Below the pieces are notes generated by a model. It was not told where the DNA came from. It worked only from the letters and a program-made list of their open reading frames with translations, and ran no database searches. From Halogeometricum borinquense DSM 11551 (GTDB taxonomy: Archaea > Halobacteriota > Halobacteria > Halobacteriales > Haloferacaceae), in the NCBI RefSeq assembly GCF_000172995.2, contig NC_014732.1, positions 120,001-152,000 of the forward strand: a stretch of 32,000 nt of DNA. The letters are read 5' to 3'. Each line of letters starts with the position of its first letter. Position 1 is the first letter of the stretch. Shown piece by piece: positions 1,736 to 31,504 of the stretch. The translations under genes and the position numbers were made by a program.

Positions 1736-2124
1736 TCGTCGATACGAACGTTCTGATTCGGTTGATGCAGGGAGACGAGGATGCGACGCGGAAAATCCGC
1801 GAGTTGGAGGACGAACACGTTCCGCTCGCACTCTCGTCGATGACGCTGTTTGAACTGTATCACAGCGTCGAACGGGTGGACAGTCCCGACGAACGGCGTC
1901 GAAAGATTGCGTCCGTTATCGACTCGAAGCCGACGTACCCGGCTGACGGTGCAGTGATGAAGAAGGCGGGCCGCCTCGACGGTCGGTTGACGGACGACGG
2001 CCGCCAAGTCGGCATCGGAGATACGGTTATCGCGGCGACCGCGCTCGTTCACGAGGAACCCGTCCTCACCGAGAACGTCGCACACTTCGAGCGTATCGAC
2101 GGACTCGAAGTCGAATCGTATTAG
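1732..2124 (+). CDS. vapC: PIN-domain ribonuclease toxin VapC
   Basis: 130 aa. N-terminal MIVDTNVLI (first acidic PIN residue), GIGDTVIAATAL and the C-terminal LTENVAHFERI motif typical of VapC. Overlaps vapB by 4 nt. Confidence 0.85.
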   Translation: MIVDTNVLIRLMQGDEDATRKIRELEDEHVPLALSSMTLFELYHSVERVDSPDERRRKIASVIDSKPTYPADGAVMKKAGRLDGRLTDDGRQVGIGDTVIAATALVHEEPVLTENVAHFERIDGLEVESY

Positions 2125-2125
2125 C

Positions 2126-3340
2126 TTAGCCCTTGAACTCCGTGATTCCCTCGATGGCGGAGGGTTCAACGTCACGGTACGCGTCGCGTGCGATGACGCG
2201 TTTGTGTACTTCGTCCGCGCCGTCGATGAGACGGAACGCTCGCACGTCCTCGTAGAAGTCCGCAAGCGGCAGGTCCTTTGCGATACCGTTGCCGCCGCAC
2301 AGTTGCAAACAGTCGTCGATAACGTCTTGGACGACGTTCGCGGTGTACACTTTCGACATCGAAACGGGAATACGCGCCTCTTCGCCCGCAGCGATGCGTC
2401 CGGCGGCGTCTCTGACCATCGTCCGCACGGCGTGCAGGCGCGTTTCAGCCTCGGCGACGGTGAACCGTACCGACTGCTTCTCCGAGAGCGACGAGTCGAA
2501 CGCTTCCCGTTCTTTCGTGTACGCTTTGGCCACCTCCAGTGCGCGCGTTGCCATCCCGGTGTACCGCATGCAGTGCGTCAGACGCGCCGGACCGAGGCGT
2601 TGCTGGGCGTGTTCGAATCCACGGTTCTTCTCGCCCAGCAGGTTCTCTTCGGGCACGCGGACGTTCTCGTATCGGATCTCAGCGTGACTCGACCCGAGCA
2701 GGTCGCCGCCAACGTGGGGGATGTCGCGGACGATTTCCACGCCGTCGGCGTCGGCGGGGACGAGAAAGAGCGATGTCCCCTCGTAGGGATGTGCCTCGGG
2801 ATCCGTGCGCGCCATCACGATGAGCACGTCCGCCTCGCTTCCCTGCGTCGTCCACCACTTGTGGCCGTCGATGACCCATTCGTCACCCTCTTTGCGCGCC
2901 TCTGAGCGAATCATCTTCGGGTCGGATCCACCGCCCGGTGCGGGTTCGGTCATCGAGAATCCCGAGCGAATCTCGCCCGCCACGAGTGGCCGGAGATACT
3001 CCTCTTTCTGTGCCTCGGTGCCGACGAGTTCCAGCGTGTGCATGTTCCCCTCGTCGGGCGCAGCGATGCGCATCGCCGACGGTCCGAGGAGACTCCGGCC
3101 CGCCTCCTCGAACGCCGGCAGCACGTCACGGAAGTTCAACCCCTGCCCGCCGTACTCCGCAGGAATCTGCGGGGCATACAAATCCCGTTCGCGCGCCTCC
3201 TCGCGGAGGGCAGCTATCTCTTCGTCGGGCACCGGACCGTCCCCGAGGTAGTCGCGCTCGACCGGGATTACACGCTCGTCTACGAACTCCCGGACGCGTT
3301 TTGCGAGTTCGCGCGCTGTCTCGGTATCGTCGTACTCCAT
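2126..3340 (-). CDS. Acyl-CoA dehydrogenase, ACAD10/ACAD11 (FadE2)-like clade
   Basis: 404 aa. SGFSMTEPAPGGGSDP, KWWTTQGSEADVLIVMART, RLGPARLTHCMRYTGMATRALE and LIDGADEVHKRVIAR resemble the ACAD domain of ACAD10/11-type enzymes. Confidence 0.88.
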   Translation of the reverse strand: MEYDDTETARELAKRVREFVDERVIPVERDYLGDGPVPDEEIAALREEARERDLYAPQIPAEYGGQGLNFRDVLPAFEEAGRSLLGPSAMRIAAPDEGNMHTLELVGTEAQKEEYLRPLVAGEIRSGFSMTEPAPGGGSDPKMIRSEARKEGDEWVIDGHKWWTTQGSEADVLIVMARTDPEAHPYEGTSLFLVPADADGVEIVRDIPHVGGDLLGSSHAEIRYENVRVPEENLLGEKNRGFEHAQQRLGPARLTHCMRYTGMATRALEVAKAYTKEREAFDSSLSEKQSVRFTVAEAETRLHAVRTMVRDAAGRIAAGEEARIPVSMSKVYTANVVQDVIDDCLQLCGGNGIAKDLPLADFYEDVRAFRLIDGADEVHKRVIARDAYRDVEPSAIEGITEFKG

Positions 3341-3393
3341 ACGACATCCACGGAATAGAACAGTGTAAATCTATTTCCCGATAGAGGTTATTT

Positions 3394-4479
3394 TTGGTAG
3401 CGGAGCTGAACACAGTGACCGACGACGCGTACTTCCGGCGACTCGTGGACGTAGACGCCCTCCGTTCGTATCTCGAAACCGAACTCGGCCCGGAGTCGGC
3501 CTTCGACGTGGAACGGCATCCGGCGGGCCACTCGAACGAAACGCTGTTTCTGACGTGGGGGGCTCGTGATCTCGTTATTCGCCGTCCGCCACCGGGTGAG
3601 ACGGCTGAGACAGCGCACGACGTACTCCGCGAATATCGTGTCATGGACGCGCTACAACAGACACCAGTTCCCGTTCCGGAGACAGTGCTTGCGTGCGACG
3701 ACCACGACGTTCTCGGGAGCGACTTCTACGTCATGTCGCGTGTCGAGGGCGACGTCCTTCGAGACGAGGTGCCCGAACGGTTCGCTGATGAGGAGTCACG
3801 CCATCAACTTGGCTACGAACTCGTGGATACGCTCGCGGATATCCACGAGGTAGCTCCCGAGTCGGTCGGATTGGACGAGTTCGGGCACGCGCCGGGGTAC
3901 ACCGGACGGCAGGTCGAACGCTGGGGTAAGCAACTCGCGTGGGCGTTCGAGCGGACTACTGAGAAGCGCGCCGTCCCCGTCCTGCGAGAGGTGGGCGACT
4001 GGCTAGCGGAGAACGCTCCGACGGACCACCCCGAGACGCTGGTCCACGGCGACTACAAACTCGACAACGTGATGTACGCCCCGGAATCGGATCCGAATCT
4101 CGTCGCCGTCTTCGACTGGGAGATGAGTACGCTCGGCGACCCGCGTGCGGACCTCGGATGGATGCTGTCGTACTGGCGGGATGCGAAGGATCCCGATCCG
4201 GCGATTCCCGAACTGGAGACGACGTTCATGGAACGGTCGGGTTACGCGACGCGGCGCGAACTCGTCGAACGCTACGAGGAACGGACGGGAATCGAGTTCG
4301 AACACCACCGATTCTACCGCGCACTCGCCGTCTACAAACTCGCGGCCCTCGGAGAGATGTTCTTCCGCCGGTATCTGGAGGGTAACAGCGACGATCCGAT
4401 GTATCCGCTGATGGAAGAACGCGTCCCGGCGTTGGCTGACCGCGCAAAGCGCATCATCGATGGCGACGAACCCCTCTGA
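3394..4479 (+). CDS. Phosphotransferase-family kinase (APH / ACAD10/11 N-terminal kinase-like)
   Basis: 361 aa. HPAGHSNETLFLTW, catalytic loop HGDYKLDNVMY and FDWEMSTLGDPRADLG (APH Brenner and DxD-type motifs). Apparent TTG start at 3394. Divergent from the ACAD across a 53-bp spacer. Confidence 0.85.
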   Translation: MVAELNTVTDDAYFRRLVDVDALRSYLETELGPESAFDVERHPAGHSNETLFLTWGARDLVIRRPPPGETAETAHDVLREYRVMDALQQTPVPVPETVLACDDHDVLGSDFYVMSRVEGDVLRDEVPERFADEESRHQLGYELVDTLADIHEVAPESVGLDEFGHAPGYTGRQVERWGKQLAWAFERTTEKRAVPVLREVGDWLAENAPTDHPETLVHGDYKLDNVMYAPESDPNLVAVFDWEMSTLGDPRADLGWMLSYWRDAKDPDPAIPELETTFMERSGYATRRELVERYEERTGIEFEHHRFYRALAVYKLAALGEMFFRRYLEGNSDDPMYPLMEERVPALADRAKRIIDGDEPL

Positions 4480-4584
4480 GGCCGCGGCCCTTACTTTTCA
4501 TCTCTCCATCGTACAAGTCCAGGAACACGACGCAACGCATTTGTAACGCGTGTATCAACTCACAATACACACTGCCCTCCGATT

Positions 4585-5379
4585 ATGTCTGCAATCGACG
4601 CTACTGACCTCACGAAACGCTACGGGAACACGCTCGCCGTCGATGGTCTCTCGCTCGATATTCCCCAGGGAACCGTCTACGGCTTCCTCGGACCGAACGG
4701 TGCGGGCAAAACCACGACGATGCGGATGCTCACTGGACTGTTGCGACCGACTGACGGAACGGCCACTGTCAGTGGTGCGTCCGTCGCGGATCGGGACAAA
4801 CTGCGCCCGCGAATCGGATACCTACCCGAGGAGCCACCGTTATATGAACAGGCGACGGCGTACGAACAACTCGAATACGTCGGTGGCCTCCGCGGTCTCT
4901 CGGCTGACGACGTTCGCGCTCGCGGAGACGAACTGTTCGACGCGCTCGGTCTCGACGTCGGTTCCTCGGACCGCATTGCTGATTTCTCGAAGGGGATGCG
5001 ACAGAAGGTGGCGTACGCGCAGACGGTCATGCACGACCCGGATGTTGTCTTTCTCGACGAACCCACGTCAGGGCTGGATCCGCGAGCGGCCCGGACGCTT
5101 CGTGACCGGATTCAACGACTCGCGGACGACGGGACGACGGTGTTTCTCTCGACACATATCCTCCCGGTCGTCGAGGAGGCGGCCGACACCGTCGGTATCC
5201 TCTACGGCGGGTCGCTGGTCGCTGAGGGCTCTCCCGCGGAACTCGTCTCACGGGCCGAGAGCGGTGGCGGCGGAACGCTCGAAGACGCCTTCCTCGACGT
5301 AACGAGTGCCGACCCGACTGCGGACGACGATGCGGAGCGATCAGTGACACGGGACAAGGAGACAACGGTCGATGTCTGA
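4585..5379 (+). CDS. ABC transporter ATP-binding protein (ABC-2 / DrrA-like)
   Basis: 264 aa. Walker A GPNGAGKTT, signature FSKGMRQKV, Walker B VVFLDEPTSGLD and H-loop STHIL. Confidence 0.92.
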   Translation: MSAIDATDLTKRYGNTLAVDGLSLDIPQGTVYGFLGPNGAGKTTTMRMLTGLLRPTDGTATVSGASVADRDKLRPRIGYLPEEPPLYEQATAYEQLEYVGGLRGLSADDVRARGDELFDALGLDVGSSDRIADFSKGMRQKVAYAQTVMHDPDVVFLDEPTSGLDPRAARTLRDRIQRLADDGTTVFLSTHILPVVEEAADTVGILYGGSLVAEGSPAELVSRAESGGGGTLEDAFLDVTSADPTADDDAERSVTRDKETTVDV

Positions 5380-7039
5380 ACCGGGTTGGGTGCAGAACAC
5401 GATTCGAATCGGCCGCTTCGAGTTCAAACGCTCGTTCCGGGGCCTCCGTGAGAGTACGGGTCGATTCATCTTCACGATTCTCAGCACGCTAGTCCCGTCG
5501 GTGATGTTCCTCTTCATCGGTTTATTGCTCGTGAGTGCAATTTCCACCGACACAATCGCTATCTCGGACGGGCTTCGCGGCACGGTAGCGATGTTCTGGT
5601 CGTTCGCTGTCTTCCTCGTTACACAGCGGGTGGTTTCCACCTATCCCCGACCGGAGGCGGAGTCGTTGTTGCTCACCACGGCCTCCACGCGAAGCGTCGT
5701 GTTCGGCCTTGCTCTCGCGGAAACCCTCCGCGTCCTCGCCTACGCTATAGCGCCGATTCTCGTCCTCGCGGCACTGTTAGCCTATTCCATCGGGTCGGTC
5801 GTACTCATGGCCGTCGTTCCGCTCGTTGTCGTCCTCCTCGCCGTCACGGCTGTTGTGACTGGTTCGCTAATCGGCTACGGTATCGCGCTTCTCCTCGCCA
5901 CCTCGCCGTTCGTCGCACGGCACAAGACGGCGCTCAGTGTACCCGTTGTCCTCGTCTTCATGGGTGTGTTTTTTGTCTTTCAGGTCCCCGAAACGCTGGG
6001 CGTGAGTCGTTCGGCGTTCGGTTGGCTCCCGATGGGGTGGCTCGCCGACCTCGTGGCCGTCGGCACGCCGCTTTCCGGGTCCTCGGTCAACGCCGTCGGC
6101 GCGTTCGCGGGATCGATTCTCGTCCTCGTTCTCGGCGGCGTCCTCCTCGAACGCGAGGCGACAGCGTTGTGGTTCGGTGACGAGGTAGACCCAACGGCGA
6201 CGACGGACGAAAGCGGAATCGATTCACCTGTCGCTGACGCGGGAAGCAAGACTCGAACGTGGACTGGACTCCGTACCGCTATTTCACCGCTCGTCATTCC
6301 GTCTCGAATCGACCTCCCGACACGCCGCGTCGCTGAAATGACGCTCCTGCGCGCCCGCCGGGACCCGCGCCGACTCTCGTTCCTCATAATGCCGTTGGCC
6401 GTCCTTGTGGGGCCGTTATCGACTTCTGGGTCGTTTTCGAGTCTGCTCGAACAACTCCCGATTCTCTGCGTTACGTTCCTCCCGTGGATTTTCGGTGCGG
6501 CGATGACACTCAACCCGCTTGGTGACGAGGGGTCGGTTCTCCCGGTGACACTCGTCGCCGCGACACCCTCGCAGTTCATCCGTGGCATTCTCCTTCCGGG
6601 CGTCGTCTACGGCGCTCCGGTCGCCGCCGTCATCACCGCCGTCACCGCTGTTGGTGGTGGTTACTCGCTCCCCGTCGTTGTCGGTCTGGCGGCTGTCGCG
6701 GCGTTCGTCACGCTCGTCGCCGCGCCCGCGGGTGCCGCCGTCGGCGTCTACCTCCCCCGATTCAGCGCTGTCAGCGTCGGGCAGAGTAACGATGTACTCC
6801 CGCCCCGGACGAGCGCGATGATTGTCCACGGAATCCTGATAATCCCGCCTGCTGGACTCCTCGCGTATCTCGTCGCTTCGCCGGGCGTCGCCGAGTTCGT
6901 TTCCGAGATACTGCCGATAGTGACCCCGACAGCCGTTAGATTCGGTGTGTCGGCGGCTGCCGTTCTTGTGGGCGTCCTCGTCGGACTCACCGGCTACCGA
7001 ACCGCGATTCACCGCGTCCGCGATTACGAACCCACCTGA
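5372..7039 (+). CDS. Polytopic membrane protein, putative permease partner of the ABC ATPase
   Basis: 555-aa ORF with many long hydrophobic stretches. Its start overlaps the ATPase gene by 8 nt (5372-5379), consistent with translational coupling. No family motif recognised. Confidence 0.7.
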   Translation: MSEPGWVQNTIRIGRFEFKRSFRGLRESTGRFIFTILSTLVPSVMFLFIGLLLVSAISTDTIAISDGLRGTVAMFWSFAVFLVTQRVVSTYPRPEAESLLLTTASTRSVVFGLALAETLRVLAYAIAPILVLAALLAYSIGSVVLMAVVPLVVVLLAVTAVVTGSLIGYGIALLLATSPFVARHKTALSVPVVLVFMGVFFVFQVPETLGVSRSAFGWLPMGWLADLVAVGTPLSGSSVNAVGAFAGSILVLVLGGVLLEREATALWFGDEVDPTATTDESGIDSPVADAGSKTRTWTGLRTAISPLVIPSRIDLPTRRVAEMTLLRARRDPRRLSFLIMPLAVLVGPLSTSGSFSSLLEQLPILCVTFLPWIFGAAMTLNPLGDEGSVLPVTLVAATPSQFIRGILLPGVVYGAPVAAVITAVTAVGGGYSLPVVVGLAAVAAFVTLVAAPAGAAVGVYLPRFSAVSVGQSNDVLPPRTSAMIVHGILIIPPAGLLAYLVASPGVAEFVSEILPIVTPTAVRFGVSAAAVLVGVLVGLTGYRTAIHRVRDYEPT

Positions 7040-10575: not shown

Positions 10576-11523
10576 TCAGTCGATCGCGTACGGTTCGGCA
10601 CTGAACGCCGGAAAATCAAGCGCCAGTAGACGTTGGCTTAGAGTGATCGCAGCGTCTGTATTTGAGACTGTATCGACCCAGGCAGTAGGAAAGGCGGTTG
10701 CTCCAAACCGGGCCCCGAGCAATGCACCAGTAAGTGCCCCAATTGTATCTGCGTCCCCACCATGGTTGACTGATTCACAAATTCCCTCACGTGGTGACTC
10801 TGCCGTGAGCCCATGGTATAAGGCGGCATGGAGGGTGCTGATTACGTAGCCGCTATCATATGTGGGTTCGGTTGCGCGCCAGTTTGAGACTCCGTCTTGC
10901 AGTTCACTGGGGAGTCGATGCTTGTATTCCTGTAGGAACGGCGTTAGTTCGGGTTTGTCGCCGCGAATGAGTTGTGCGACAATATAATTAAACAACGCAC
11001 AGGACCACTGACATCGTGTATCATAGTGGGTGATTGCAGAGATCACTCGACTCCCGCTGACCAACGACTGTGGATCTGCTCGGAATGCCACTGCAATTGG
11101 TGTACACCGCATGAGACTGCCGTTCCCTGCATCACGTCCGTCAGGTGCCTGCATCGACGCCTCATAGCTTGCAAGCGACCAGTCTTTCCCAGCAGCGATC
11201 TTTTCAAGCACATCTCTGGTTAAGTACCCGACATCAAGTGGCGAACTCCCTAACCAGTCTACAAACCGTGCAGACACGTCTTCGGGATCTAGTCGGTGGC
11301 AGTCAACCAAACTACGCGCCGTCCGAAGTGTTAGCTCGGTGTCGTCGGTCACAGTGCCTGCTGGCCGTGGCGGACGTCCGCCGTCTACGGGCCCGTCTAT
11401 CGTTCCGAATTGTTCGCTGACAGCTGTTTGGGATACAAACTCGACAGGCCGGCCAATTGCATCACCACACGCAACCCCAACAAGGACGCCAGCGGCACGG
11501 TCCTGTACGTCTTCAGGTGGCAC
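10576..11523 (-). CDS. ADP-ribosylglycohydrolase family protein (DraG/ARH/Tri1-like)
   Basis: 315 aa with a GTG start. Family motifs are all present: GVACGDAIGRPVEF, GTVTDDTELTL, GNGSLMRCTPIAV and HGGDADTIGALTGALLGARFG (di-metal site residues). Confidence 0.88.
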   Translation of the reverse strand: MPPEDVQDRAAGVLVGVACGDAIGRPVEFVSQTAVSEQFGTIDGPVDGGRPPRPAGTVTDDTELTLRTARSLVDCHRLDPEDVSARFVDWLGSSPLDVGYLTRDVLEKIAAGKDWSLASYEASMQAPDGRDAGNGSLMRCTPIAVAFRADPQSLVSGSRVISAITHYDTRCQWSCALFNYIVAQLIRGDKPELTPFLQEYKHRLPSELQDGVSNWRATEPTYDSGYVISTLHAALYHGLTAESPREGICESVNHGGDADTIGALTGALLGARFGATAFPTAWVDTVSNTDAAITLSQRLLALDFPAFSAEPYAID

Positions 11524-11538
11524 TAAAACGAACCGCGA

Positions 11539-11817
11539 TTAGTCGCTTGCGTGGAATTCACGCTCGACGTTCGAAGACTCTCGGGCCTCAAGTGCTGCTG
11601 TCACACGGTCGAGCTTGTCGTCCAGTTCGTCCTCTGAACAGTTTGTGAAGCGCGTATTCTGCGGTTCTGATTGCTGACGATAAGCTTGCAGCCACGTGAG
11701 GTCTCGGTCGTGGCTTACCCGGACCTGGATTGGATCCTTGGGGATGGAATCGATCGAGCGGTCTCGAACAACCGTTCGATCAAATGGGGCCCCTCGGTCG
11801 CCAGGTTGGTCACTCAT
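11539..11817 (-). CDS. Hypothetical small protein (92 aa), middle gene of the ART/ARH cassette
   Basis: ATG at 11817 (MSDQPGDRGAPFDRTVVRDRSIDSIPKDPIQVRVSHDRDLTWLQ...EDELDDKLDRVTAALEARESS...). The track ORF begins at TTG 11877 inside an AT-rich spacer. The stop lies 15 nt upstream of the ARH GTG. No recognisable family. Confidence 0.5.
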   Translation of the reverse strand: MSDQPGDRGAPFDRTVVRDRSIDSIPKDPIQVRVSHDRDLTWLQAYRQQSEPQNTRFTNCSEDELDDKLDRVTAALEARESSNVEREFHASD

Positions 11818-11839
11818 ACATTGACAACTTAATTGGTAC

Positions 11840-11845
11840 AATAAA
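11840..11845 (-). promoter_or_regulatory. Candidate TATA box for a leaderless small-ORF + ARH transcript
   Basis: The minus strand reads ...cttcTTTATTgtaccaattaagttgtcaatgtATG. The TTTATT lies at -28..-23 relative to the ATG at 11817, which is the expected spacing for haloarchaeal leaderless mRNAs. It sits in the 62-bp AT-rich spacer between the ART-like gene stop (11880) and this ATG. Confidence 0.3.
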
Positions 11846-11879
11846 GAAGCTTTGCTTTTTTCAATATCTCTTTGCAAGG

Positions 11880-12923
11880 CTACGCGCCGAGATCTCGGGG
11901 GCCAACTACGTATTCCGCATAGTTCGAGAGTACTTCGATCGTTTTGGGGGCGAATATTGACTCCGCTGTAATGTAGTCAATCCAGTTCCACAGTCGCTCA
12001 TTTGGATCTGGCGCCTGTACTGTCAAATCCATCTCTGTCTGTATGTCCTGTTCAACGGTGATATCAAGCAGATCAGCAATATCCTGATGCTGGACTTCAT
12101 CTAATCTCACAGGCGTACTCAGCAACTGGATCGTCCGCCGGAGTTTTCGGGGCTCGCGATCACTGTCACGGTCATAAAAGTGGACCAGAAGCTTGTCTAT
12201 GGGGAGTTGGATTGCTCCTGTCAGGACGTGGAATTCACATTCTAATCCCGTATGTGCGGGTGGTTGGAAAAAACAGTCCGGCGCAAAGGCGATGCCTGTT
12301 CGCTGGGGATCGAACTCACAGACAACTCCTCGAGAAAAGCCACGCGCAACCTGTTCTCCAAGCGAAAAGCTACTGACAACTGCTGATTCGATTTCGATCA
12401 TCTGGCTGTCGGGTTGCTCTAATACTGCAGTCACAATGGGTGCAATCTCCTCTGGATAGAGCCCCCGGTAAAGCCCTCCCCTATATCCAGTTTGCTGTGA
12501 GAGAAACACCTGCGTTAGTCGATAGAACTCACGGTAGACATGAAACGACTCGCGTGGAAGCGGTTGAACCGATTTTCCATCACCCCGAATATATCCTGAA
12601 CAGCCCAGTGATTCCCGAACGACGTGGTCGTATGTTTGACCAACTGCTGGCTGATTACTCGCAGTCTTCATATGGTCTAATAAATCTTGAACCTCTCTGG
12701 CGGGAGTTTCACCATGCATGGCTGCAACTGCGTCGATAAATTCCTCTACGACCTCGTCTTTCAATTTGTAATATGTCGGCGTAGCTTGGGAGATACAGAC
12801 CTGCTGGGAGAGATCAAGCCCGAAATCGTCTTCAAAAGTACTGAGAGGGTCAACGAGTGGTAAATTAAGTTCACCTGCCATTTCGGTCATTCTGTGGTTA
12901 TTTCGCCATACGTTCTTGTCCAC
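11880..12923 (-). CDS. Predicted mono-ADP-ribosyltransferase (R-S-ExE class); otherwise a hypothetical protein
   Basis: 347-aa ORF (GTG 12923; alternative ATGs at 12890 and 12881). Ordered motifs: GGLYRGLY (R153, codon 12467..12465), AVVSSFSLG (S184-S187, 12374..12363) and GLECEFHVL (E228-x-E230, 12242..12234). Spacings are 31 and 41 aa, close to those of C3/iota/cholera-type ARTs. No signal peptide. The function call rests on motifs only. Confidence 0.55.
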   Translation of the reverse strand: MDKNVWRNNHRMTEMAGELNLPLVDPLSTFEDDFGLDLSQQVCISQATPTYYKLKDEVVEEFIDAVAAMHGETPAREVQDLLDHMKTASNQPAVGQTYDHVVRESLGCSGYIRGDGKSVQPLPRESFHVYREFYRLTQVFLSQQTGYRGGLYRGLYPEEIAPIVTAVLEQPDSQMIEIESAVVSSFSLGEQVARGFSRGVVCEFDPQRTGIAFAPDCFFQPPAHTGLECEFHVLTGAIQLPIDKLLVHFYDRDSDREPRKLRRTIQLLSTPVRLDEVQHQDIADLLDITVEQDIQTEMDLTVQAPDPNERLWNWIDYITAESIFAPKTIEVLSNYAEYVVGPRDLGA

Positions 12924-13106
12924 GGCATATAATGATCGTGATAACGTTCTGTCGGGCTGTTAGGTCCCAATTCGGGCGGCTCCTGAGACGGTGGGCAGTC
13001 CGAGCGTCACTCTTGAACGCCGGGCACTGTATCAGGAAAGACCCATTTACCGCTGATTGCTCTCACCGAGTCAGCAATCACCGGGAAGACATGGCACCCG
13101 TCCGCC

Positions 13107-15347
13107 TCAGAGTTTCTCTGCGGCGAGTGCTTGTTCGGACCGGCGGGTCGCTTGGTCGAGTCGGTTGCGCGCGGCGTTCGCTGCCGGGTCAGGCAGGCCG
13201 TCGCTCGCCGCTTCAAGTCGGTCCTTCGCTCGCTGAAGGTTATCCGTGGCGGCTTCGAGTGCCTTGTCCGCTCCCGGTGCATCGTTCGATTCGGCACGCT
13301 CTGCGGCTCGGTCGGCGGCCGCCGCGATGGCTTCGAGCGATTTCGTCAGGCCGTGGATGGCGTTCGCGCTGGGTCCACCGCCGGTACCGGAATCGTCGCC
13401 GCCGCTCTCGTTTTTGTCTCCGCCGCTTCCGTTTTTGTCTCCGCCGCCGTCCGTCCCTTCTGCCGCCTCCTGCACCGTCGTTGCCGTTTCACGCGTCACA
13501 TCTGCGAGGAACGAGGCGAGAGACGCTTTCCCCGTTCTCGGTCGGTCGATGGTAACTGACGGCTCCTCCGCCGGATTGACCCTGAACGCGCCGATGGCGT
13601 CGTCGGTGTCGCGGACTTCGGTCGTGTACGCGCCGCCGCGGTGGACGTAGACGGCGTCAGAGCCGTTTACGGGCGAGTCGTACAGTCGCCCGGCGAAGTC
13701 GTCTTCGACGGCCACGTCGGTCAGCGTCGCATCGGTTCCGTCAGCATCCACGCGTAGCTTCACGGCGTCACCCGACGCAACCAGTGGTATCTCGCCGTCT
13801 ACACCCGCAACGGCGACACCCGGCGGCGTCTGGTCGGCTTCGTTTTCGCTTTCGGTTTCTTCGGCCGTCGCGTCGTCAGTGCCGCCCGCCGCTGTCTCCG
13901 TTTCAGTCGCGTTGTTTGTCGCTGTCTCGTTCTCTGTCGCGTCGCTGACGCTGAGTTGCTGACTGTACGGTGCCGCACCGGCTCGGTTGACAGTCAAGCG
14001 GTGTTCGCCCGGCGGTACGTCTCTGAGGAGGGCGACGCCGCCGAACGTCGGAACTGCCTCGGGGTCGCTTTCCAAGAGGGCGACGGCCTCTACGTTCGAC
14101 GTTTGGGTTGTGAGCCCCTCGTTTTCCGGCGCGTCGTCGGTCGTCACGGCTTCTGTCACCGCCGCGACGACGCTGCCGACCGAACCCGGCGCACCGATTG
14201 CATCGTACTGTTCCGCCAGCGCGGCCCGGTGTGCCGGTTCGGTGATATCCGCCGCCGGATCCTCGTATCGCTCTTGCGTCCACGGTGCGTCTGTCGTCGT
14301 CAGGTGGCCAGCAATGGCGTCCTCGGCAAACTGGGTAACGTTGAACTCGAAACTCAACTGTGTGCCGGTGAACGCCGTGAGATGTTCGACCTCTGTGGCT
14401 GGAACCAGTTCGTACGTCTCGTCTCCTTCAGGGTCGTTTCGGCCCTCGAAGTCGAGAGCGAGTCCCGTTTCGCGGCCGGGAAGGTCCGTCGGCGGCGACG
14501 TGAGGTCGTCGAACGACCGGATGGTGAGTGCCTCGGGGACGAGCGTATCACGCGTGACCGCGGGGAGTCGCTCGTGTTCGTACACCGGTTTCCCGTCCAG
14601 TTCGGGGACGACGAACGGCAGGCGGAATCCCTCGTCGCGCGGTAGTCCGTACGCCGCGGGAACGTTCTCGAGCGAGGACAGGCCGCGAATCGCCCGGTTG
14701 GTGATGTCGGCCGAGATGTCGCCGACGGAGACGCGCTGGAAGCTCTCTCGCTCCTCGTTCAGCGAGAGCGCACTGGAATGTGACCCCAACTCCGAGAGTA
14801 TCCTCGGGACTTCCTCCATCGGATCGAGGTGTTCGTTGTTCGGCACGCGCCGGGAGTGCGAACTCGCGACGTGTAACCGTGCGCTGTCGCGTTCGGTATC
14901 GATGAAAACGTGCACTACTTCCCAGTCGTGCCAATGGAAATTCGTCGTGAACTGGTCGAACGCCGAGTAGAACCAGTACTGGACCACAGTCAGTGGCGAC
15001 TCTTCGTACGACCGGACGTTGTAGAACACCGTCGGGTCGGGAACGGGCGTTTCCGTCGCACGTTCGCTGTAGCCGTCGAGGGCGTCGAACCCCTCGACAA
15101 CAGGTTCGCCGTCGCTCTCGGACTCGTACGGTCGGGGGTCCGTCGGGAACCAGCGCTCGTTTGCGTCGAAGTACAACACCGGTGCGTAGCGCTCGGCCAG
15201 CGTCCGCGCCTCGTCCGTCGGAACCGCGGTGGTAGTGGCGTTCGGTTCGCTTTCTGTCGCCGAACAGCCGGCGACGGCCGCAGCGCTCGCGCTGGCAACG
15301 GCTGCGAGGAGTCGTCGCCGTGTGAGTTCGCTCCCGCCGTCCGTCAC
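13107..15347 (-). CDS. Tat-exported lipoprotein with an N-terminal Vps62/DUF946-like domain and an acidic low-complexity, coiled C-terminal region
   Basis: 746 aa. Twin-arginine signal plus lipobox: MTDGGSELTRRRLLAAVASASAAAVAGC. YAPVLYFDANERWFPTDP ... VVQYWFYSAFDQF..NFHWHDWEVVHVFID...VASSHS resembles the Vps62/DUF946 signature. T/E/D/A-rich linkers, a GGDKN repeat and an Ala-rich helical C-terminus. Confidence 0.8.
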   Translation of the reverse strand: MTDGGSELTRRRLLAAVASASAAAVAGCSATESEPNATTTAVPTDEARTLAERYAPVLYFDANERWFPTDPRPYESESDGEPVVEGFDALDGYSERATETPVPDPTVFYNVRSYEESPLTVVQYWFYSAFDQFTTNFHWHDWEVVHVFIDTERDSARLHVASSHSRRVPNNEHLDPMEEVPRILSELGSHSSALSLNEERESFQRVSVGDISADITNRAIRGLSSLENVPAAYGLPRDEGFRLPFVVPELDGKPVYEHERLPAVTRDTLVPEALTIRSFDDLTSPPTDLPGRETGLALDFEGRNDPEGDETYELVPATEVEHLTAFTGTQLSFEFNVTQFAEDAIAGHLTTTDAPWTQERYEDPAADITEPAHRAALAEQYDAIGAPGSVGSVVAAVTEAVTTDDAPENEGLTTQTSNVEAVALLESDPEAVPTFGGVALLRDVPPGEHRLTVNRAGAAPYSQQLSVSDATENETATNNATETETAAGGTDDATAEETESENEADQTPPGVAVAGVDGEIPLVASGDAVKLRVDADGTDATLTDVAVEDDFAGRLYDSPVNGSDAVYVHRGGAYTTEVRDTDDAIGAFRVNPAEEPSVTIDRPRTGKASLASFLADVTRETATTVQEAAEGTDGGGDKNGSGGDKNESGGDDSGTGGGPSANAIHGLTKSLEAIAAAADRAAERAESNDAPGADKALEAATDNLQRAKDRLEAASDGLPDPAANAARNRLDQATRRSEQALAAEKL
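13399..13447. repeat. 21-bp tandem repeat (about 2.3 copies) inside the lipoprotein gene
   Basis: ccgccgctctcgtttttgtct (13399-13419) and ccgccgcttccgtttttgtct (13420-13440), followed by a partial ccgccgc. These encode GGDKNES/GGDKNGS on the minus strand. Confidence 0.7.
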
Positions 15348-25636: not shown

Positions 25637-26425
25637 TCATCCGATCAAGGGTATCGCGTCGGACCACAACTGTTGAAACTGTCGCTCGAACTCGGCGACG
25701 ATATCGGTTTCTTTCACTCCCACGACTCCGAATCGGTCGGCTCCTCCCCGTGGATTTGGGATATCGATCATCGTCGTGGTTTGATCGATGATGTCGAAGG
25801 AAACCGGAATCTCCGGCAGCACGCTGATCGAGATGTCTACCGATTTCGATTTTACCAACTCCGGGAAGGTTTCAGGGAGCGTCGTTAGCACCTCGTCACT
25901 GAATATGAGCGAGACGCTGACGTCTGTCTGCATCGCGCCGAAGAACGCATCGAACTCCGACCGGAGCGTCTCCCACGATGCATGCTCGTAGGGTGGCCCT
26001 ACGGTGCCGCGTACGGAGCGAGTTGCAGTCTGGACGTGTTGCCGGATGGCAGTGTTCATCTCGTCGCTACCGAGTGTGCCAAGCCAGACACTGCCGTCGG
26101 CCGCTGGGGTTGGCGGTAGATTAGAGTGGATTGTCGCTGCCAGTTCGTGGTAGCGGTTCCATTCCCGTTGTAGTTCATCCGTTCGTTCGGCGAGCAGTCT
26201 GTCAACTGCGGTCTCGGGGTCTACGGCGATGTATCTCGTCGGATCAGTTGATTGACTTTGAATCAGTGTTCGGGCTTCGAGACCATTGAGAACATCGTAA
26301 ATGCGACCTTTGGGGACGCTACTGGCCGCTGATAGCTCCGTCGCTGTCGCCGTCCCGGTTACGAGGAGCGTCCGATAGACTTTCTCTTCGTAACTTGAGA
26401 GGCCCAGTTCGCTCAGCGCCGTCAT
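25637..26425 (-). CDS. TrmB family transcriptional regulator
   Basis: From ATG 26425: MTALSELGLSSYEEKVYRTLLVTGTATATELSAASSVPKGRIYDVLNGLEARTLI, the canonical TrmB N-terminal wHTH. Divergent from the SMR gene. Confidence 0.85.
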   Translation of the reverse strand: MTALSELGLSSYEEKVYRTLLVTGTATATELSAASSVPKGRIYDVLNGLEARTLIQSQSTDPTRYIAVDPETAVDRLLAERTDELQREWNRYHELAATIHSNLPPTPAADGSVWLGTLGSDEMNTAIRQHVQTATRSVRGTVGPPYEHASWETLRSEFDAFFGAMQTDVSVSLIFSDEVLTTLPETFPELVKSKSVDISISVLPEIPVSFDIIDQTTTMIDIPNPRGGADRFGVVGVKETDIVAEFERQFQQLWSDAIPLIG

Positions 26426-26561
26426 AGCGAACTGTCTCTCTGTTTTCAGTAAATATGTGTATGATACCGTTTCGACGTACCGGTTGCTGTACTTCCTGAA
26501 ACGGACCACAAGTGGTGCTATATTCCAATAACTCCATACTATCGTGGTTGGAGCATATTGT

Positions 26562-26894
26562 ATGAACCCCTATCTGTTGCTTGTCAGCGCAATCATCGCT
26601 GAAGTCATCGGAACGACCGCTCTCAGACTTTCGGAAGGGTTTTCGAAACCACTTCCCAGTTTGGGCGTCCTCCTCGGCTACGGGATTGCGTTCTATCTGG
26701 TTTCGCTGACCATGGAGGAACTCCCAATCGGCGTCGTGTACGGAACGTGGGCGGCGTTGGGAATCGTCGGCATCGCAGGAATCGGCATCGTGTTTTTTGA
26801 TGAGTCGATTGACCTCGCCGGTGTTCTTGGTATCCTCCTGATCGTTGTTGGTGTGTACTGTATCAATGTTGTTTCCGACGTATCTGTTCACTAA
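26562..26894 (+). CDS. SMR family small multidrug resistance transporter (EmrE/QacE-like)
   Basis: From ATG 26562: MNPYLLLVSAIIAEVIGTTALRLSEGFSK... with the conserved membrane Glu (AEV), a YAxWxGxG-like motif (VVYGTWAALGIVG), four TM segments and about 110 aa. Confidence 0.88.
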   Translation: MNPYLLLVSAIIAEVIGTTALRLSEGFSKPLPSLGVLLGYGIAFYLVSLTMEELPIGVVYGTWAALGIVGIAGIGIVFFDESIDLAGVLGILLIVVGVYCINVVSDVSVH

Positions 26895-27321
26895 TTGTCT
26901 CTTTTGATAGTACTATTTGTTTATATGGGTATAAATAGGCACGGTCAAGTATCATAGCTTGGCTATCTGGTCTTATATATGGTGTAACCACACTGACTGT
27001 ACTGGATAATGCTTCGGGACACATCTCTTTATTCGTTGAACGGGGGGATGAGAAGCGGTGTTAGCATTGGATAACCTGATCGCTCGGGTGGAACGCCCAC
27101 ACTCACCGAACTCAACTGGTTTTCCCTTCGATTGTCACTGTGCCATTTGTCTCGCGGTTGGAATGAGGGGACAGCGCGGACCCCCTCGAATCCACTTGTC
27201 TTTATTGAGGTAAAACAAAGTTCTGTACTGATGGTCTGAATCGTCCGAATTTAGACAGTAGCGCTGCAAAATACGCTGGTTCTACATTTTATAAATCATA
27301 TGTCGATATATCTATTTGTGA

Positions 27322-27343
27322 AGACTGGAAGTTGAGACTACAT
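27322..27343. repeat. Left terminal inverted repeat of the IS4-like element
   Basis: See the mobile_element entry; 18 of 22 positions match the reverse complement of 29247-29268. Confidence 0.6.
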
Positions 27344-27518
27344 CCAGTATAGAGGGCCTCTGATGCGTGGATGTAGCCGAACTGAGGAAGGGGAGTCGCT
27401 TCAATTCCCCGTCTCCACGCCGATTTATTCTAAAACACTAACTGGTTATGATACGCAGCAAGCATCAGGAGGGACCTGCTGCTCACCACCAGGGCGGACG
27501 TCGAAACGGGACGGTAGC

Positions 27519-29197
27519 CTACCCAATCCCTGTCTGCTTCTTCAACAGCGTCAAGACGCTATTTGCCGTCACCACTGGTGGCCGGTCGTATTCACCAGCC
27601 AATTCGACCTGCACGAGGAGATCAACTGACCTCCAGATCGAATACAATAGGCACGCGAATGCGAAGTAGAAGAACCGCAGCACGAAGTTCTTCGACGTCG
27701 TTGCGGCCATGAACCGCTTGATACTCTTGTAACCGCTCTCGATTTCCCAGCGCGACCCATATTTTCCGATAGCCTCGGTTTCGTAATTCGTCATGAACAC
27801 TGAGTACTGCCGATAGTCCGTGTGCTCAGAGTTCTCCTTCCGTCGATACACGAGAGTTGTCTCGTGCCACTCATCGTCTCCTAAATGCAGTCCACGGTCG
27901 ACCGATTGACGGTCAATATCGTGTTCGCACAATTGACGAGCTGTTTCCTTCTCGCTAGTCCGCATCCGCTTCGGAACTACGTACTGAAGTCTCCGAGAAG
28001 AAATCTCTTCTAAGACGTGCTGGCTATCGAACTCTCGATCCATCAAGACGTCGTCGACCATCACCATCTCTTCTGCCGAGTCGAGTAGGTCGCGCACTAT
28101 CTCAAGACGGGTATCGCCCTTCCGGACTGGCCTGGCGTCTAAGACCAACGGGACTGCATTACCCACAAGTTGGACCGTCGCCCATTGATACGCGTATTCA
28201 TCCGTCTTCTCCTTCGTCCCGATAATCTCACTCTCATGTCCCGCCCGGTCCCCGGTGAATGGGTCATCTTCTGTGATGTCGATTGCAACGGTTCCCGCAC
28301 GATAGAACTCGTTCGTCTCTGCGAGTCGGTCTATCAGCCGTCCAACGGCCTCACGATACATTCCTCGAACCTCCCCGATGGAGAGTTCTCGTAGGCTGGA
28401 TCGGTGAGTGTGACCCAGTGGTGTGCGTTCACGGTCGGATTCGAGTGTGAAGCTCCGTGCTCCCTCGTTCGCAGCGAGGTTCTCTCGGAGTCCGAGGTAC
28501 GTCTGGAGGTCCCAGAACGAGTTCGTGTGAATCTCTCTGGACTCACCTCGATGCAACGAGAACGAGGGATACGCGACTCTTTGAATTTCCTCGACGACCT
28601 TGTCTGTTTTCGAGAGTACTTCTTGGTCATTGAGAGCAGTATCCTCGTCGTTCTCGTCGAGACGGTTGATCGTCCGTGGGGGGCTTCGGGGGACATCTAC
28701 TCCAGCCATCTCCGCTTTGACGAGAATCGTTTGAGCAGCCTTCTGAATCGTCTCCTGAACTTCAGTAGTAAACCGTTGGTTCCACGTTCGCCACAGCGTC
28801 GACTGGTCGGGTAACGTCTCGGAGCCAAGTTGTTCACCGAGCGACGGACGCTGTTGGAGGTATTCGACGAGAGCGGTCTCGTGGCTCCAGCCGTGGAGTG
28901 CTTTGAGGAGAAACGCCCTGAACAATTGAGCCATCGGATACTGAGTCGAGACAGAATAGCGCGGTCGTGCGGGTCGAAGTCGATGTATTCGAGGGGATAG
29001 TGAACTACGAACGTCTCGACTGAGTCGTGAGCCTCGTGGTCGAACCATTCTGCTGCGACGGTTCTGATGTCTTCTGTGAGGCCTCCGAGTGAACTTCGGT
29101 CGTAGAGGGGTGTGGAAGAATAGGTCGGCCATGTCGAATACTCGTGCTGTGCGAGAGATCGGTAGACGTCGCGTCGAGAGAGTTGTGTGGAGGGCAT
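27519..29197 (-). pseudogene. DDE transposase (IS4 superfamily) split over two frames
   Basis: The protein-like N-terminal part lies in the frame starting at ATG 29197 (MPSTQLSRRDVYRSLAQHEYS...HYPLEYIDFDPHDRAILS). The remainder lies in the 27519..29132 frame from about ...VSTQYPMAQLFRAFLLKALHGWSHETALVEYL. DDE signature: VAIDITEDD, VLMDREFDS and YGSRWEIESGYKSIKRF. The frame change is equivalent to -1 and lies near 28935-28975. An alternative reading is two separate ORFs, with the transposase starting at ATG 28934. Confidence 0.6.
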
Positions 29198-29246
29198 AAT
29201 TCCTTACTATGGCTCAGAATTCAAGTAGATGACCGCAACGCTCGAA

Positions 29247-29268
29247 ATATAGTCGCATCTTCAAGTCT
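29247..29268. repeat. Right terminal inverted repeat of the IS4-like element
   Basis: See the mobile_element entry. Confidence 0.6.
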
Positions 29269-29363
29269 AAGTAATTCGTTGGATACATGCATCAAAGGCG
29301 TCCTATACCGGTGTCGTCCAACTCTCACGTTATCGGGAAGATTATAACAAACCAACATTTATT

Positions 29364-29576
29364 ATGAGTGTGGATAAAATGACCAGTATGTTAGAAGATC
29401 GTTTAACGAACCGAGGGAAGATAACTGCTGTATTTGTGTTGGGTACCGTTCTAGTTTTGTTGGGTATTGGACAACTGTTTGACTACGATCTATTATCGAT
29501 TCCCCCACTAATATATGCCACCTTGGGTGGATTTTTACTTTTATGGGGGATTCTTGAACTTTTTGTGAACCGTTGA
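29364..29576 (+). CDS. Hypothetical small membrane protein (70 aa, 2 TM)
   Basis: ATG start. Hydrophobic segments ITAVFVLGTVLVLLGIGQLF and PPLIYATLGGFLLLWGILELF. Low-G+C DNA immediately outside the IS end. Confidence 0.4.
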   Translation: MSVDKMTSMLEDRLTNRGKITAVFVLGTVLVLLGIGQLFDYDLLSIPPLIYATLGGFLLLWGILELFVNR

Positions 29577-29625
29577 ATTGAATCTGAAAAATACTGAAAA
29601 TGTGTTCTAAAAAATAACCAATTAG

Positions 29626-29952
29626 TTACTGAGATTCTACGTTTCGGTAGCCGACAGTAGGAAGAGGAGGAGCTGTGGATTGGACCTCTATGTGAACCCC
29701 ACATCCATCAGCTTTCAAATTGATTTCCCCCTTAACAACCAAGAGAGCTCCTGCAATCAGAGTTCCGACAGCGGGTGGTGTGCCAGCCTCAAGAACACCC
29801 CATTTATACAGAGCATCAGCAATAGCTGAAGCCCCTGCCCCGATATCGAACAGTGCATTCAAGTCATCGATATTTCCTTCGCTCAGCCAAATGTCGTACC
29901 TATTGTACACGCCATATATCTCATAAGCGTATCCAGACTTGTTGCACGTCAT
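29626..29952 (-). CDS. Hypothetical protein (108 aa) with a Gly/Ala-rich hydrophobic segment, coupled to the upstream Tat-signal ORF
   Basis: The ATG overlaps the upstream stop (ATGA at 29949-29952). Sequence MTCNKSGYAYEIYGVYNRYDIWLSEGN...AGTPPAVGTLIAGALLVVKG.... No signal peptide and no family recognised. Confidence 0.5.
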   Translation of the reverse strand: MTCNKSGYAYEIYGVYNRYDIWLSEGNIDDLNALFDIGAGASAIADALYKWGVLEAGTPPAVGTLIAGALLVVKGEINLKADGCGVHIEVQSTAPPLPTVGYRNVESQ

Positions 29953-30359
29953 TTATCCGATTCTCCGTTTTTGTTAGCTCTTTTTACTTCTGGGACTCCA
30001 TTTGAATTCACACTGGCGATTTTTAGTTCCCCAGACTCAATTTTCTCGTTGATTGCCCCAACTTGTAGTTGGATTTCTTGGAGAGTCACCAATTTGGCAC
30101 CTTCTGGTGCTTCAGGAAAGTCTGAGATGTCAAGTTCGTCAATTTCTTCCTGAGTCACATTCAACTTGACCTTGTTTCCTTGCGCCTTAATCCAGCCCTT
30201 TCCAACAGCAGAACTACCTTTGCGATCTTTTTGGGTTGATTCACTACCAGGGTCCGCACTGACTGCGCCCATAGACGCCAATCCAGCAATAGTGAGACCA
30301 CTCACTTCCATCAATGTTCTTCTACTGATCTTGTTTGGAGGTTTCATCCGATTGATCAT
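29949..30359 (-). CDS. Small Tat-exported, Lys-rich hypothetical protein (136 aa)
   Basis: Twin-arginine signal KISRRTLMEVSGLTIAGLASMGAVSA followed by DPGSESTQKDRKGSS.... The mature part is about 100 aa and rich in K, E and N. The ATG at 30359 lies 10 nt from the IS6 left end. Confidence 0.55.
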   Translation of the reverse strand: MINRMKPPNKISRRTLMEVSGLTIAGLASMGAVSADPGSESTQKDRKGSSAVGKGWIKAQGNKVKLNVTQEEIDELDISDFPEAPEGAKLVTLQEIQLQVGAINEKIESGELKIASVNSNGVPEVKRANKNGESDK

Positions 30360-30369
30360 ATTAGGAGAT

Positions 30370-30385
30370 AGGCACTGTCTAGTTA
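30370..30385. repeat. IS6 left inverted repeat
   Basis: AGGCACTGTCTAGTTA, a perfect match to the reverse complement of 31101-31116. Confidence 0.85.
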
Positions 30386-30420
30386 AGCCAGTTTGAGGAA
30401 CGAGCAGGTCGTTGAGTTAG

Positions 30421-31107: not shown

Positions 31108-31116
31108 ACAGTGCCT
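31101..31116. repeat. IS6 right inverted repeat
   Basis: TAACTAGACAGTGCCT. Confidence 0.85.
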
Positions 31117-31339
31117 TCTGCGTCGTGCCCTCTACTATGTGATCTTCTTTACTGGGACATTGCTGCTGGCCCTGGAGACATTAAATCGAATTTTCGCATC
31201 AATGTAGTCCAAGCCAGATACCATCCCTGAACTGCGAGGATATACTCAAAAAGAGAAAGTATAATATTTTCAACGAATAATTCAGGTAACGCTCAATCGT
31301 CGATCGAGTCCTCACTGTCATCCCTTGGAGCGCGTCATC

Positions 31340-31504
31340 GTGAAATCGAACTACCCGAAGATGGCGAGCGGATACAAGAAAGACGGCGAGTACAAGCGTG
31401 GATACAAGTACGCGACAATCACCTTCGTAGGAGATTACGCACCGATTGTTCTCGGATTTCACGGATTTGATGTCTTAGAGTATGTCGCTATCCATTTATT
31501 CTAA
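31340..31504 (+). pseudogene. Probable remnant of an IS4-superfamily transposase
   Basis: Manual translation: VKSNYPKMASGYKKDGEYKRGYKYATITFVGDYAPIVLGFHGFD.... The core resembles EKTDEYAYQWATVQLVGNAVPLVLDARPV of the transposase at 27519-29197 (pattern Y.[YW]AT[IV].[FL]VG...P[IL]VL). No start codon and no rest of the protein. Confidence 0.3.

Follow-up and report, generated by a model that had tools for sequence, protein, structure and literature searches.

In a 32,000-nucleotide stretch of the 194,834-bp plasmid of Halogeometricum borinquense DSM 11551 (the whole stretch is called the window below) we identified a cassette of three genes that lie on the minus strand in the same direction. They encode a DraT-like ADP-ribosyltransferase (ART; the writer), a small protein of 92 aa (the small partner) and a DraG/Tri1-like ADP-ribosyl-arginine hydrolase (ARH; the eraser), and their site carries the locus tags Hbor_37220 and Hbor_37210. 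We put the chances at about even that this plasmid-borne cassette, acquired by horizontal transfer, is a toxin-antidote module of three genes that belongs to haloarchaeal mobile elements. The identities of the proteins are well supported, and we infer catalysis, arginine specificity, toxicity, inhibition by the small protein and the trigger. The genes and the segment that holds them are as follows.

11880..12890, minus strand: gene for the DraT-like ADP-ribosyltransferase, 336 aa, predicted toxin/effector, with the ATG start used in homologues
12923..11880, minus strand: longer open frame of the writer, 347 aa, from a GTG
11539..11817, minus strand: 92-aa partner gene, from its ATG, predicted inhibitor/antitoxin
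10576..11523, minus strand: gene for the predicted eraser, a DraG/Tri1-like ADP-ribosyl-arginine hydrolase of 315 aa
10458..13106, unstranded: low-GC islet with the cassette, an acyl-CoA synthetase gene on one side and a gene for a 746-aa protein on the other

A reading made earlier from the letters alone (the sequence-only reading) had described three tightly packed, co-directional minus-strand genes, and the open reading frames (ORFs) bear this out, with gaps of 62 nt and then 15 nt. It had started the writer at 12923, a GTG; the frame stands, but the start is most likely the ATG at 12890 (M12 of the longer frame), on which an identical database protein, the Haloferax homologue and the NCBI annotation agree. 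Residue numbers below are those of the 336-aa frame, to which 11 is added for the 347-aa frame. The small ORF lengthens to 112 aa if an upstream TTG is used. The DNA had also looked poorer in G+C than both flanks, and it is: the G+C content is 0.49–0.57 over 10.5–13.0 kb versus 0.60–0.65 on both sides, and the G+C content at third codon positions is 0.48, 0.58 and 0.50 in the trio versus 0.72–0.77 in four flanking genes. This foreign base composition and the plasmid location of the cassette count in favour of a mobile toxin-antidote module. The flanks encode metabolic enzymes (an AMP-forming acyl-CoA synthetase, an acyl-CoA dehydrogenase and a Zn-alcohol dehydrogenase). At least three further H. 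borinquense assemblies also carry the cassette, and a megablast search of the cassette region against PLSDB gave no match, despite the plasmid annotation of the gene. Since the ratio of non-synonymous to synonymous substitution rates against the Haloferax copies is 0.11–0.15 (writer 0.148, small protein 0.152, ARH 0.112), all three genes are real. Transmembrane segments, signal-like N-termini and twin-arginine motifs are absent from all three proteins, in keeping with the earlier statement that the writer and the eraser have no signal peptide, and all three look cytoplasmic by these predictions.

The writer belongs to a rare family. The 336-aa protein has no match in Pfam, NCBIfam, PADLOC or PDB sequences. 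In a collection of 5.8 billion proteins it has one close relative, from Haloferax denitrificans (~68–69% identity), and an alignment-based search of the same collection added almost no relatives. Among 1.84 billion representatives, searched exhaustively with HMMER, 41 proteins matched at E <= 1e-3 and 19 of them at E <= 1e-10; their source is hypersaline samples. One apparent member, P0020 (2,220 aa), was a cadherin-repeat false positive and was left out. The family alignment used here holds 24–26 relatives, only 18–37% identical to the window protein. Using tblastn, the window ART had no match among phages and matched only p163 of Halorubrum sp. BOL3-1 among plasmids; scans of IMG/VR with two subfamily alignments returned no locus; and scans for related loci gave Haloferax denitrificans alone among genomes and two loci among metagenomes.

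The ordered R / S-x-S / E-x-E signature seen by the sequence-only reading is present as R142, S174-F-S176 and E217/E219 (R153, S185-F-S187 and E228-C-E230 in the 347-aa frame). In the 26-member alignment conservation reaches at least 90% at R142 (in YRG), G143, E219, R102, P160, D205, H268 and W303. Across the family R142 and E219 vary hardly or not at all and S-x-[ST] is widely retained; the residue two before the catalytic Glu varies (E, N, D or S). By its conservation, the R / S-x-S / E-x-E pattern in the writer is more than chance motif-spotting would give, and near-invariance of R142 and E219 with a kept S-x-[ST] in divergent members indicates selection on a predicted catalytic function. 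The parts of the protein are located as follows.

12171..12488, minus strand: predicted catalytic ART core, residues 135–240, the region aligning to DraT
12462-12473, 12363-12374 and 12228-12242, minus strand: the core motifs LYRG, SSFS and ECEFH, respectively
11883..12143, minus strand: family-specific C-terminal helical domain, residues 250–336, with the conserved H268 and W303

An AlphaFold2 model built from 26 sequences has a predicted local distance difference test score (pLDDT) of 91.3 and a predicted template modelling score of 0.87 (pLDDT of 35 from only 3 sequences). In this model YRG lies on strand 140–143, SSFS on strand 172–176 and E-x-E at the start of strand 219–223, with helices between them. 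The R, S-x-S and E-x-E strands follow one another in that order in R-S-E ARTs, so this is the expected order of elements. The helices of the C-terminal domain span residues 250–258, 265–285, 294–309 and 315–329. A Foldseek search of the whole protein against the PDB, a check the earlier reading had suggested, put ARTs at the top (the SpvB ART structures 2gwl and 2gwm at ranks 1 and 2, VahC at rank 12), but at non-significant E-values of 0.6–2.3. No structure of DraT exists (PMC8120803). HMMER searches of PDB sequences with the family and core-only profiles found no ART and only noise (eIF3m, HisF).

Profile comparison points to DraT. We took the reference draT from a Rhodobacter plasmid, where it adjoins draG, and all DraT homologues gathered with it carry PF07357. 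Using hhalign, the family profile matched a 22-sequence DraT profile with a probability of 89.3% and E 2.1e-6 over 90 columns, pairing YRG with YRG, S-F-S with S-F-[ST] and E-x-E..GG with E-x-E..GG; the core-only profile matched DraT with a probability of 93% and E 3.4e-7. As controls, the profiles were reversed, which gave E 0.25, and the columns of the DraT profile were shuffled, which gave E 0.024 at best. Against a single DraT the alignment of the family profile grew to 157 columns and took in a W-[KN]-x-x-S motif further upstream. The DraT alignment stops at about family residue 232, two residues short of the DraT C-terminus, and the C-terminal domain of ~90 residues thus falls outside the DraT-aligned region. 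When the core hidden Markov model (HMM) was run against the ORFs of all fetched loci, the best non-family ORF was this same genuine DraT, at a weak E of 0.028. Two relatives hit the Pfam DRAT model PF07357 below its gathering threshold of 25 bits, P0024 with 20.6 bits (E 2.9e-4) and P0034 with 14.7 bits (E 0.018), and both matches cover the predicted core and the C-terminal part of the DRAT model. A placement in a non-ART fold, which the earlier reading had named as fatal to its proposal, did not come out of the profile search, whose match is to DraT. We therefore regard the writer as a well-supported candidate for a DraT-like branch of R-S-E ARTs that had lacked annotation and lies outside the curated DraT family.

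A small gene (61–125 aa) lies directly 3' of the writer on the same strand in all 13 non-virion loci examined. Besides the window, these loci are L001 (Haloferax denitrificans), L002/L003, L004, L006, L007, L008, L009/L010, L011, L014, L015, L016 and L024. In Haloferax the ORF has the same length and start as in the window and 76% identity. Homology of the small genes is statistically supported in 7–8 of the 13: an iterative HMM seeded with the closest four and run over ~1,800 ORFs recovered those of L006 (E 1e-6), L007 (E 7e-7) and L024 (E 2e-25), with the L002 ORF borderline (E 5e-3). The small genes of L008, L009, L014, L015 and L016 are non-significant and count only as positional analogues, which have in common a central Trp and an acidic C-terminal helix. 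Within the supported set P26, D28, V32 and W42 are invariant, and the closest five (window, L001, L004, L011, L024) end in -ASD, as -HASD, -RASD or -QASD (window 11539-11550). A profile search with the small-protein family gave no match in Pfam, NCBIfam, PADLOC, PHROG or the PDB, Tri1 included. The idea of a split Tri1 was dropped, the small-protein profile showing no similarity to Tri1 or anything else in the PDB and Pfam.

The third gene is the most readily assigned. The sequence-only reading had credited the hydrolase with its family motifs, and rightly so: the 315-aa protein matches Pfam PF03747 (ADP_ribosyl_GH) at E 7.5e-70 and 236 bits (cut-off 26.2). Its best solved relatives are DraG of Rhodospirillum (2WOC, E 3e-36) and DraG of Azospirillum, followed by Tri1 (6DRE, E 2e-25). 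Compared with 2WOC it keeps PVEF, TDDTE, LDVG (the D97 position), GNGSLMR and GGDADT, so that the binuclear-metal and catalytic motifs are intact. It falls below the NCBIfam equivalog cut-offs both for DraG (TIGR02662, 161 vs 337 bits) and for Tri1 (NF041672, 121.5 vs 490 bits), and by these scores it is a paralogue of DraG and Tri1 and an orthologue of neither. Alignments with Tri1 start at Tri1 residue 64, leaving the first ~63 residues of Tri1 without a counterpart. The Arg-type E-x-E motif of the writer fits this eraser, because the nearest structures, DraG and Tri1, are Arg-ADP-ribose hydrolases. A seemingly truncated ARH in run ERR481281 (L027), a possible sign of dispensability, turned out to reflect the start chosen by the gene caller; the DNA is identical.

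The sequence-only reading saw a writer/eraser pair with a third component and asked whether the trio recurs. It does, in the same order, in Haloferax denitrificans (ARH 72% identical to the window ARH), on Halorubrum sp. BOL3-1 plasmid p163 (ARH 47–48% identical) and in a branch whose writer is fused to a helix-hairpin-helix (HhH) domain (L016). The linkage of the three genes therefore stands, but the weight within it shifts: the small protein is constant (13/13) and the ARH, which follows the small gene only in the window and these three loci, is optional (4/13). It is the small protein, not the ARH, that constantly accompanies the ART. Among close relatives without an ARH, L024 has 4 kb available downstream, and L004 has 174 nt only, with no ARH start there; more distant family members with enough flank have no ARH either. 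The p163 trio is flanked by two integrases and a DUF262 gene. In L016 (846-3723) a 488-aa protein with HHH_5 and ART-like domains is followed by a 125-aa gene and a gene for a 309-aa ARH; this writer is distant, 23% identical, and its ARH is 43% identical. The HhH fusion hints at a DNA-associated target.

In the three closest trios the identities of writer, small protein and ARH are 68/76/72% and 39/30/47%. Divergence runs in parallel in the three genes, as would fit their inheritance as a unit. Adjacency of the ARH is far beyond chance, because the same order is found in branches 23% identical and ARH genes are estimated at few per genome. Sampling of eight haloarchaeal plasmid ARH paralogues showed a DraT-like ART only beside the p163 copy, and a screen of the other seven loci with the family HMMs for hidden ART-like genes found none.

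ARHs without an ART (40–48% identical; L018-L022, L012, L017, on haloarchaeal plasmids) sit in conflict-type operons of their own. These comprise McrBC with an ARH; a VWA gene with HEAT or AAA, then an ARH and a metallophosphoesterase; an ARH fused to a CRISPR ring nuclease; and a CBS-domain gene with small ORFs and an ARH, once with XseAB. Such operons are reminiscent of the ARG-centred systems against ADP-ribosylation that have been predicted for bacteria (PMC9503650).

One rival explanation is that the writer is inactive as a transferase, being either an ART-like scaffold, degenerate or without catalysis, or else a glycohydrolase of NAD+. In that case the substrate of the ARH would lie elsewhere, for example in virus-written marks that it strips, and its adjacency would reflect a shared conflict island. 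The writer's lack of a curated model at threshold and its non-significant PDB fold matches would accord with this, as would the frequency of ART-less ARHs on haloarchaeal plasmids and the lack of an ARH at most family loci. On the other hand, R142 and E219 are near-invariant and S-x-[ST] widely kept across very divergent members, the same-order ARH adjacency in two 23%-identical branches is far beyond chance, and the trio diverges in step. We consider an inactive writer improbable.

The toxin-antidote module that we favour would work as follows. The first gene would encode a cytoplasmic R-S-E mono-ADP-ribosyltransferase that uses NAD+ to modify arginine on an essential intracellular protein; an Arg-directed mono-ART is proposed because of the E-x-E motif and the DraG/Tri1-type eraser. 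The ~90-aa product of the second gene would bind the transferase and keep it inactive, most likely as a stoichiometric antitoxin or immunity factor. The hydrolase of the third gene would strip escaped marks, providing an enzymatic second layer in some lineages only. Loss of the element, or interference of a virus infection with a labile partner, would free the transferase and arrest the cell, and the outcome would be plasmid addiction or abortive infection. Tight linkage, a small partner, co-inheritance, a mobile location and writer-first order are toxin-module traits that the cassette has.

Several observations weigh against such a module. The writer's PDB fold match is non-significant, so its membership of the ARTs would rest on profile-profile similarity and motifs; the window protein has no match to Pfam DRAT and no relative reaches the gathering score. 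Searched against PADLOC-DB v2, a negative-hit check that the sequence-only reading had proposed, the three proteins matched no family at E <= 1. The small protein is unlike known antitoxin or immunity families and has no DNA-binding domain; orphan copies of it were sought on plasmids and none was found; and its acidity is uninformative, haloarchaeal proteomes being generally acidic. It might just as well serve as activator, chaperone or even substrate. At the borders of the islet in the window we looked for a tRNA, flanking or att-like repeats and a recombinase, and found none. Toxicity, activity and partner binding of the writer are predictions. Finally, virion and conjugation forms of the writer domain, to which we now turn, point to offensive use as a delivered effector, and the virion form has no small partner gene called alongside it.

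Halovirus HCTV-5 gp114 (L023, NC_021327.1, 70811-74692; 2367-6248 of the locus) is a 1,293-aa protein annotated as 'zeta toxin and ParB nuclease domain protein', with Pfam Zeta_toxin at residues 145–317. Its residues 837–1048 hold an unannotated C-terminal domain of the DraT-like family (E 3.6e-31) in which HRG and E-G-E are kept, and its gene is found a short way upstream of those for the head protease and major capsid. By this domain make-up and position gp114 looks like a polyvalent virion protein of an archaeal virus. The window protein matches phrog_24083 at E 3e-6 and large homologues match it at E 7e-17 to 6e-22. The significant matches of a BFVD fold search are large, uncharacterised proteins of haloarchaeal tailed viruses and phages, one of them named 'head morphogenesis domain-containing'. 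Conjugation is touched on by L015:3060-8377, where an 858-aa ART-like protein is encoded directly after a relaxase-like gene and a TrwB-type coupling protein gene, and is followed by genes of 63 aa and 62 aa; it is possibly a conjugation-delivered effector in a haloarchaeal element. Other large forms have two tandem domains (P0032) or an N-terminal HhH fusion (P0033).

Other family members, too, lie in mobile or defence settings. L001 has an integrase, TnpB and an nSTAND NTPase; L002 a TrwB-like gene and Orc1/Cdc6; L008 a resolvase and ApeA; and L009 a family-B DNA polymerase. The Haloferax denitrificans island (L001:16173-19685 and 2036-4977) encodes a 1,170-aa nSTAND NTPase-TPR protein, two TnpB/IS605-type genes, a Y1 transposase and a phage-type integrase.

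These forms are the basis of the main rival explanation, that the writer is an effector for the establishment of a mobile element or for host takeover and modifies host proteins in favour of the plasmid or virus, a role that the sequence-only reading had not considered. Its targets would be factors such as those of transcription, replication or defence, in the manner of T4 Alt, ModA and ModB; the small protein would time the enzyme, give it specificity or act as its chaperone, and the ARH would keep the modification within bounds or reset it. The gp114 domain beside head protease and major capsid genes, the phrog_24083 and BFVD matches to large haloviral and phage proteins, the 858-aa form after a relaxase and TrwB coupling protein, and the tandem-domain and HhH-fused forms all agree with it. 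Injected polyvalent proteins with ART domains are an established theme, and archaea have been noted as poor in polyvalent proteins (PMC5512222). ART-less ARHs are common on plasmids, as would be expected if ADP-ribosylation were a common weapon (PMC9503650). However, the stand-alone trio is under purifying selection and isolated among metabolic genes, and transfer, virion or secretion genes were not found near the window cassette. A co-encoded eraser and an obligatory small partner fit self-protection better, and the lack of a small partner gene called beside the virion form suggests that the partner is required only if the enzyme remains inside the cell that makes it. We hold host takeover to be an unlikely, if serious, contender.

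A third possibility is a domesticated switch of the DraT/DraG kind, in which arginine on a plasmid or host enzyme is reversibly ADP-ribosylated in response to a metabolic signal and the small protein is a signal-sensing regulator, parallel to the PII proteins that control DraT and DraG. The closest detectable relatives of writer and eraser are indeed DraT and DraG. In the window, genes for an acyl-CoA synthetase and an acyl-CoA dehydrogenase are neighbours of the cassette, and AMP-forming acyl-CoA synthetases are elsewhere controlled by reversible post-translational modification. DraT activity, moreover, requires a partner protein (PMC8120803). The neighbours vary by locus, however, and are mostly mobile-element flanks; foreign composition and a rare, patchy distribution are unlike a housekeeping regulator; and most loci have no ARH, without which a switch that must be reversible could not work. 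On account of the varying neighbours and the usual lack of an ARH, we rank a switch below host takeover and think it quite unlikely. The target of the writer, under the toxin-antidote reading as well, cannot be of the NifH type in a haloarchaeal mobile setting. The target of DraT is Arg101 of dinitrogenase reductase, and nif genes are present neither in the window nor in the family loci examined (haloarchaeal plasmid, virus and integrative elements).

A broader proposal would join the toxin-antidote module to the viral and conjugative forms. Reversible arginine ADP-ribosylation may be a general conflict currency of haloarchaeal mobile elements, dealt out by one DraT-like ART domain that is offensive in virion and conjugation proteins and defensive or addictive in cassettes. 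The two jobs of Tri1 would then be split, with occlusion of the active site falling to the small inhibitor and enzymatic erasure to the ARH, and the ART-less ARHs would be a counter-measure. We offer this tentatively, as it is rather less than an even prospect. If it were true, the trio would be the first archaeal ADP-ribosylation writer/inhibitor/eraser system, and it would suggest that bacterial DraT descended from, or shares ancestry with, a mobile toxin family.

Two possible promoters were noted at the cassette:

11841..11848, minus strand: TTCTTTAT, A/T-rich and TATA-like, 24–31 nt 5' of the small-ORF ATG, possible internal promoter for the small ORF and ARH
12927..12933, minus strand: ATTATAT, TATA-like, ~35–43 nt 5' of the writer ATG, kept upstream in Haloferax, possible cassette promoter

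The first element is common to the window and Haloferax, and L011 and L004 have A/T-rich elements at comparable distances. Such elements ~24–35 nt 5' of the small-gene ATG at four loci hint, weakly, at separate expression of the antidote genes.

Other parts of the window may be mentioned here. Directly upstream of the cassette, the 746-aa ORF at 13107-15347 (minus strand) has a Tat-lipoprotein-like N-terminus (RRRLLAAV...AGCS) and long acidic low-complexity stretches; it matches nothing in Pfam. Another low-GC zone, larger than the islet, spans 26000-32000 (G+C 0.44–0.56) and contains a DDE transposase (DUF772 and DDE_Tnp_1; ORF 27519-29132, minus strand); it is probably another acquired or insertion sequence-rich segment. 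The 555-aa ORF at 5372-7039 (plus strand) has no Pfam match, adjoins an ABC ATPase gene (L026) and is also conserved in a second assembly (L027).

The sequence-only reading knew of no characterised archaeal ART/ARH pair, and we likewise found no description in the literature searched of such a pair, of the writer family or of the tags Hbor_37220 and Hbor_37210. What appears to be new is a DraT-like ART family that has no annotation, is missed by current domain libraries and is restricted to haloarchaeal mobile elements; the small protein that is its obligatory companion; the arrangement as three genes; and the use of the same domain in a virion-module protein of a halovirus and in a conjugation operon. 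If active, the cassette would offer a genetically tractable entry to archaeal protein ADP-ribosylation, Haloferax species being carriers, and a possible evolutionary source of DraT. It would also be a natural experiment in which non-enzymatic and enzymatic immunity lie on separate genes, and would supply new models with which defence and anti-defence genes of haloarchaea could be annotated.

ART/ARH pairs are known already from bacteria as a switch (DraT-DraG), as effector and immunity protein (Tre1-Tri1) and as predicted toxin-antitoxin pairs. Of these, DraT-DraG is the nearest. DraT is the only family with detected homology to the writer, with the YRG / S-F-[ST] / E-x-E..GG core in common; the cassette eraser is closest to DraG by structure; the genes are adjacent with the writer first; and Arg chemistry is expected of both. 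The cassette proteins differ in falling below the curated thresholds and in occurring on haloarchaeal plasmids and viruses with no nif context, whereas DraT homologues have been stated to be restricted to nitrogen-fixing bacteria (PMC8120803). The cassette adds a C-terminal helical domain, an obligatory small gene, foreign composition and a mobile, patchy distribution. DraT/DraG has itself been regarded as a domesticated toxin-antitoxin system (PMC8120803).

Tre1-Tri1, from a Serratia type VI secretion system, and the Imm-ARG pairs resemble the cassette in that an R-S-E ART is followed by an ARH reversing Arg-ADP-ribosylation, and in the concept of enzymatic immunity. The cassette has no secretion system or signals, its target would be intracellular and its host is archaeal. 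Ting et al. in 2018 are said to have found that the N-terminal extension of Tri1 occludes the ART active site; the window ARH lacks this extension, and a separate small protein may inhibit non-enzymatically. Imm-ARG is strictly associated with R-S-E ART toxins (PMC3482391), and for bacteria and phages ART-ARG pairs have been predicted to act as toxin and antitoxin (PMC9503650). With DarT-DarG the cassette shares the toxin-first logic of writer and eraser on mobile elements and an intracellular ART toxin. Unlike DarT-DarG, ParT-ParS and Res-Xre, its eraser is an ARH and not a macrodomain, and its ART is of the R-S-E/DraT-like kind and not DarT or Res; compared with the type II toxin-antitoxin systems built on ARTs, its partner is not an Xre/HTH antitoxin and it has three components. 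Lastly, the polyvalent ARTs of phages and conjugative elements, and T4 Alt, are akin to it through the occurrence of the same domain family in HCTV-5 gp114 and the 858-aa relaxase-operon protein. Polyvalent ARTs have been described mostly from the H-Y-D (Tox-ART-HYD2) class (PMC5512222), whereas the window gene is stand-alone and has both a partner and an eraser.

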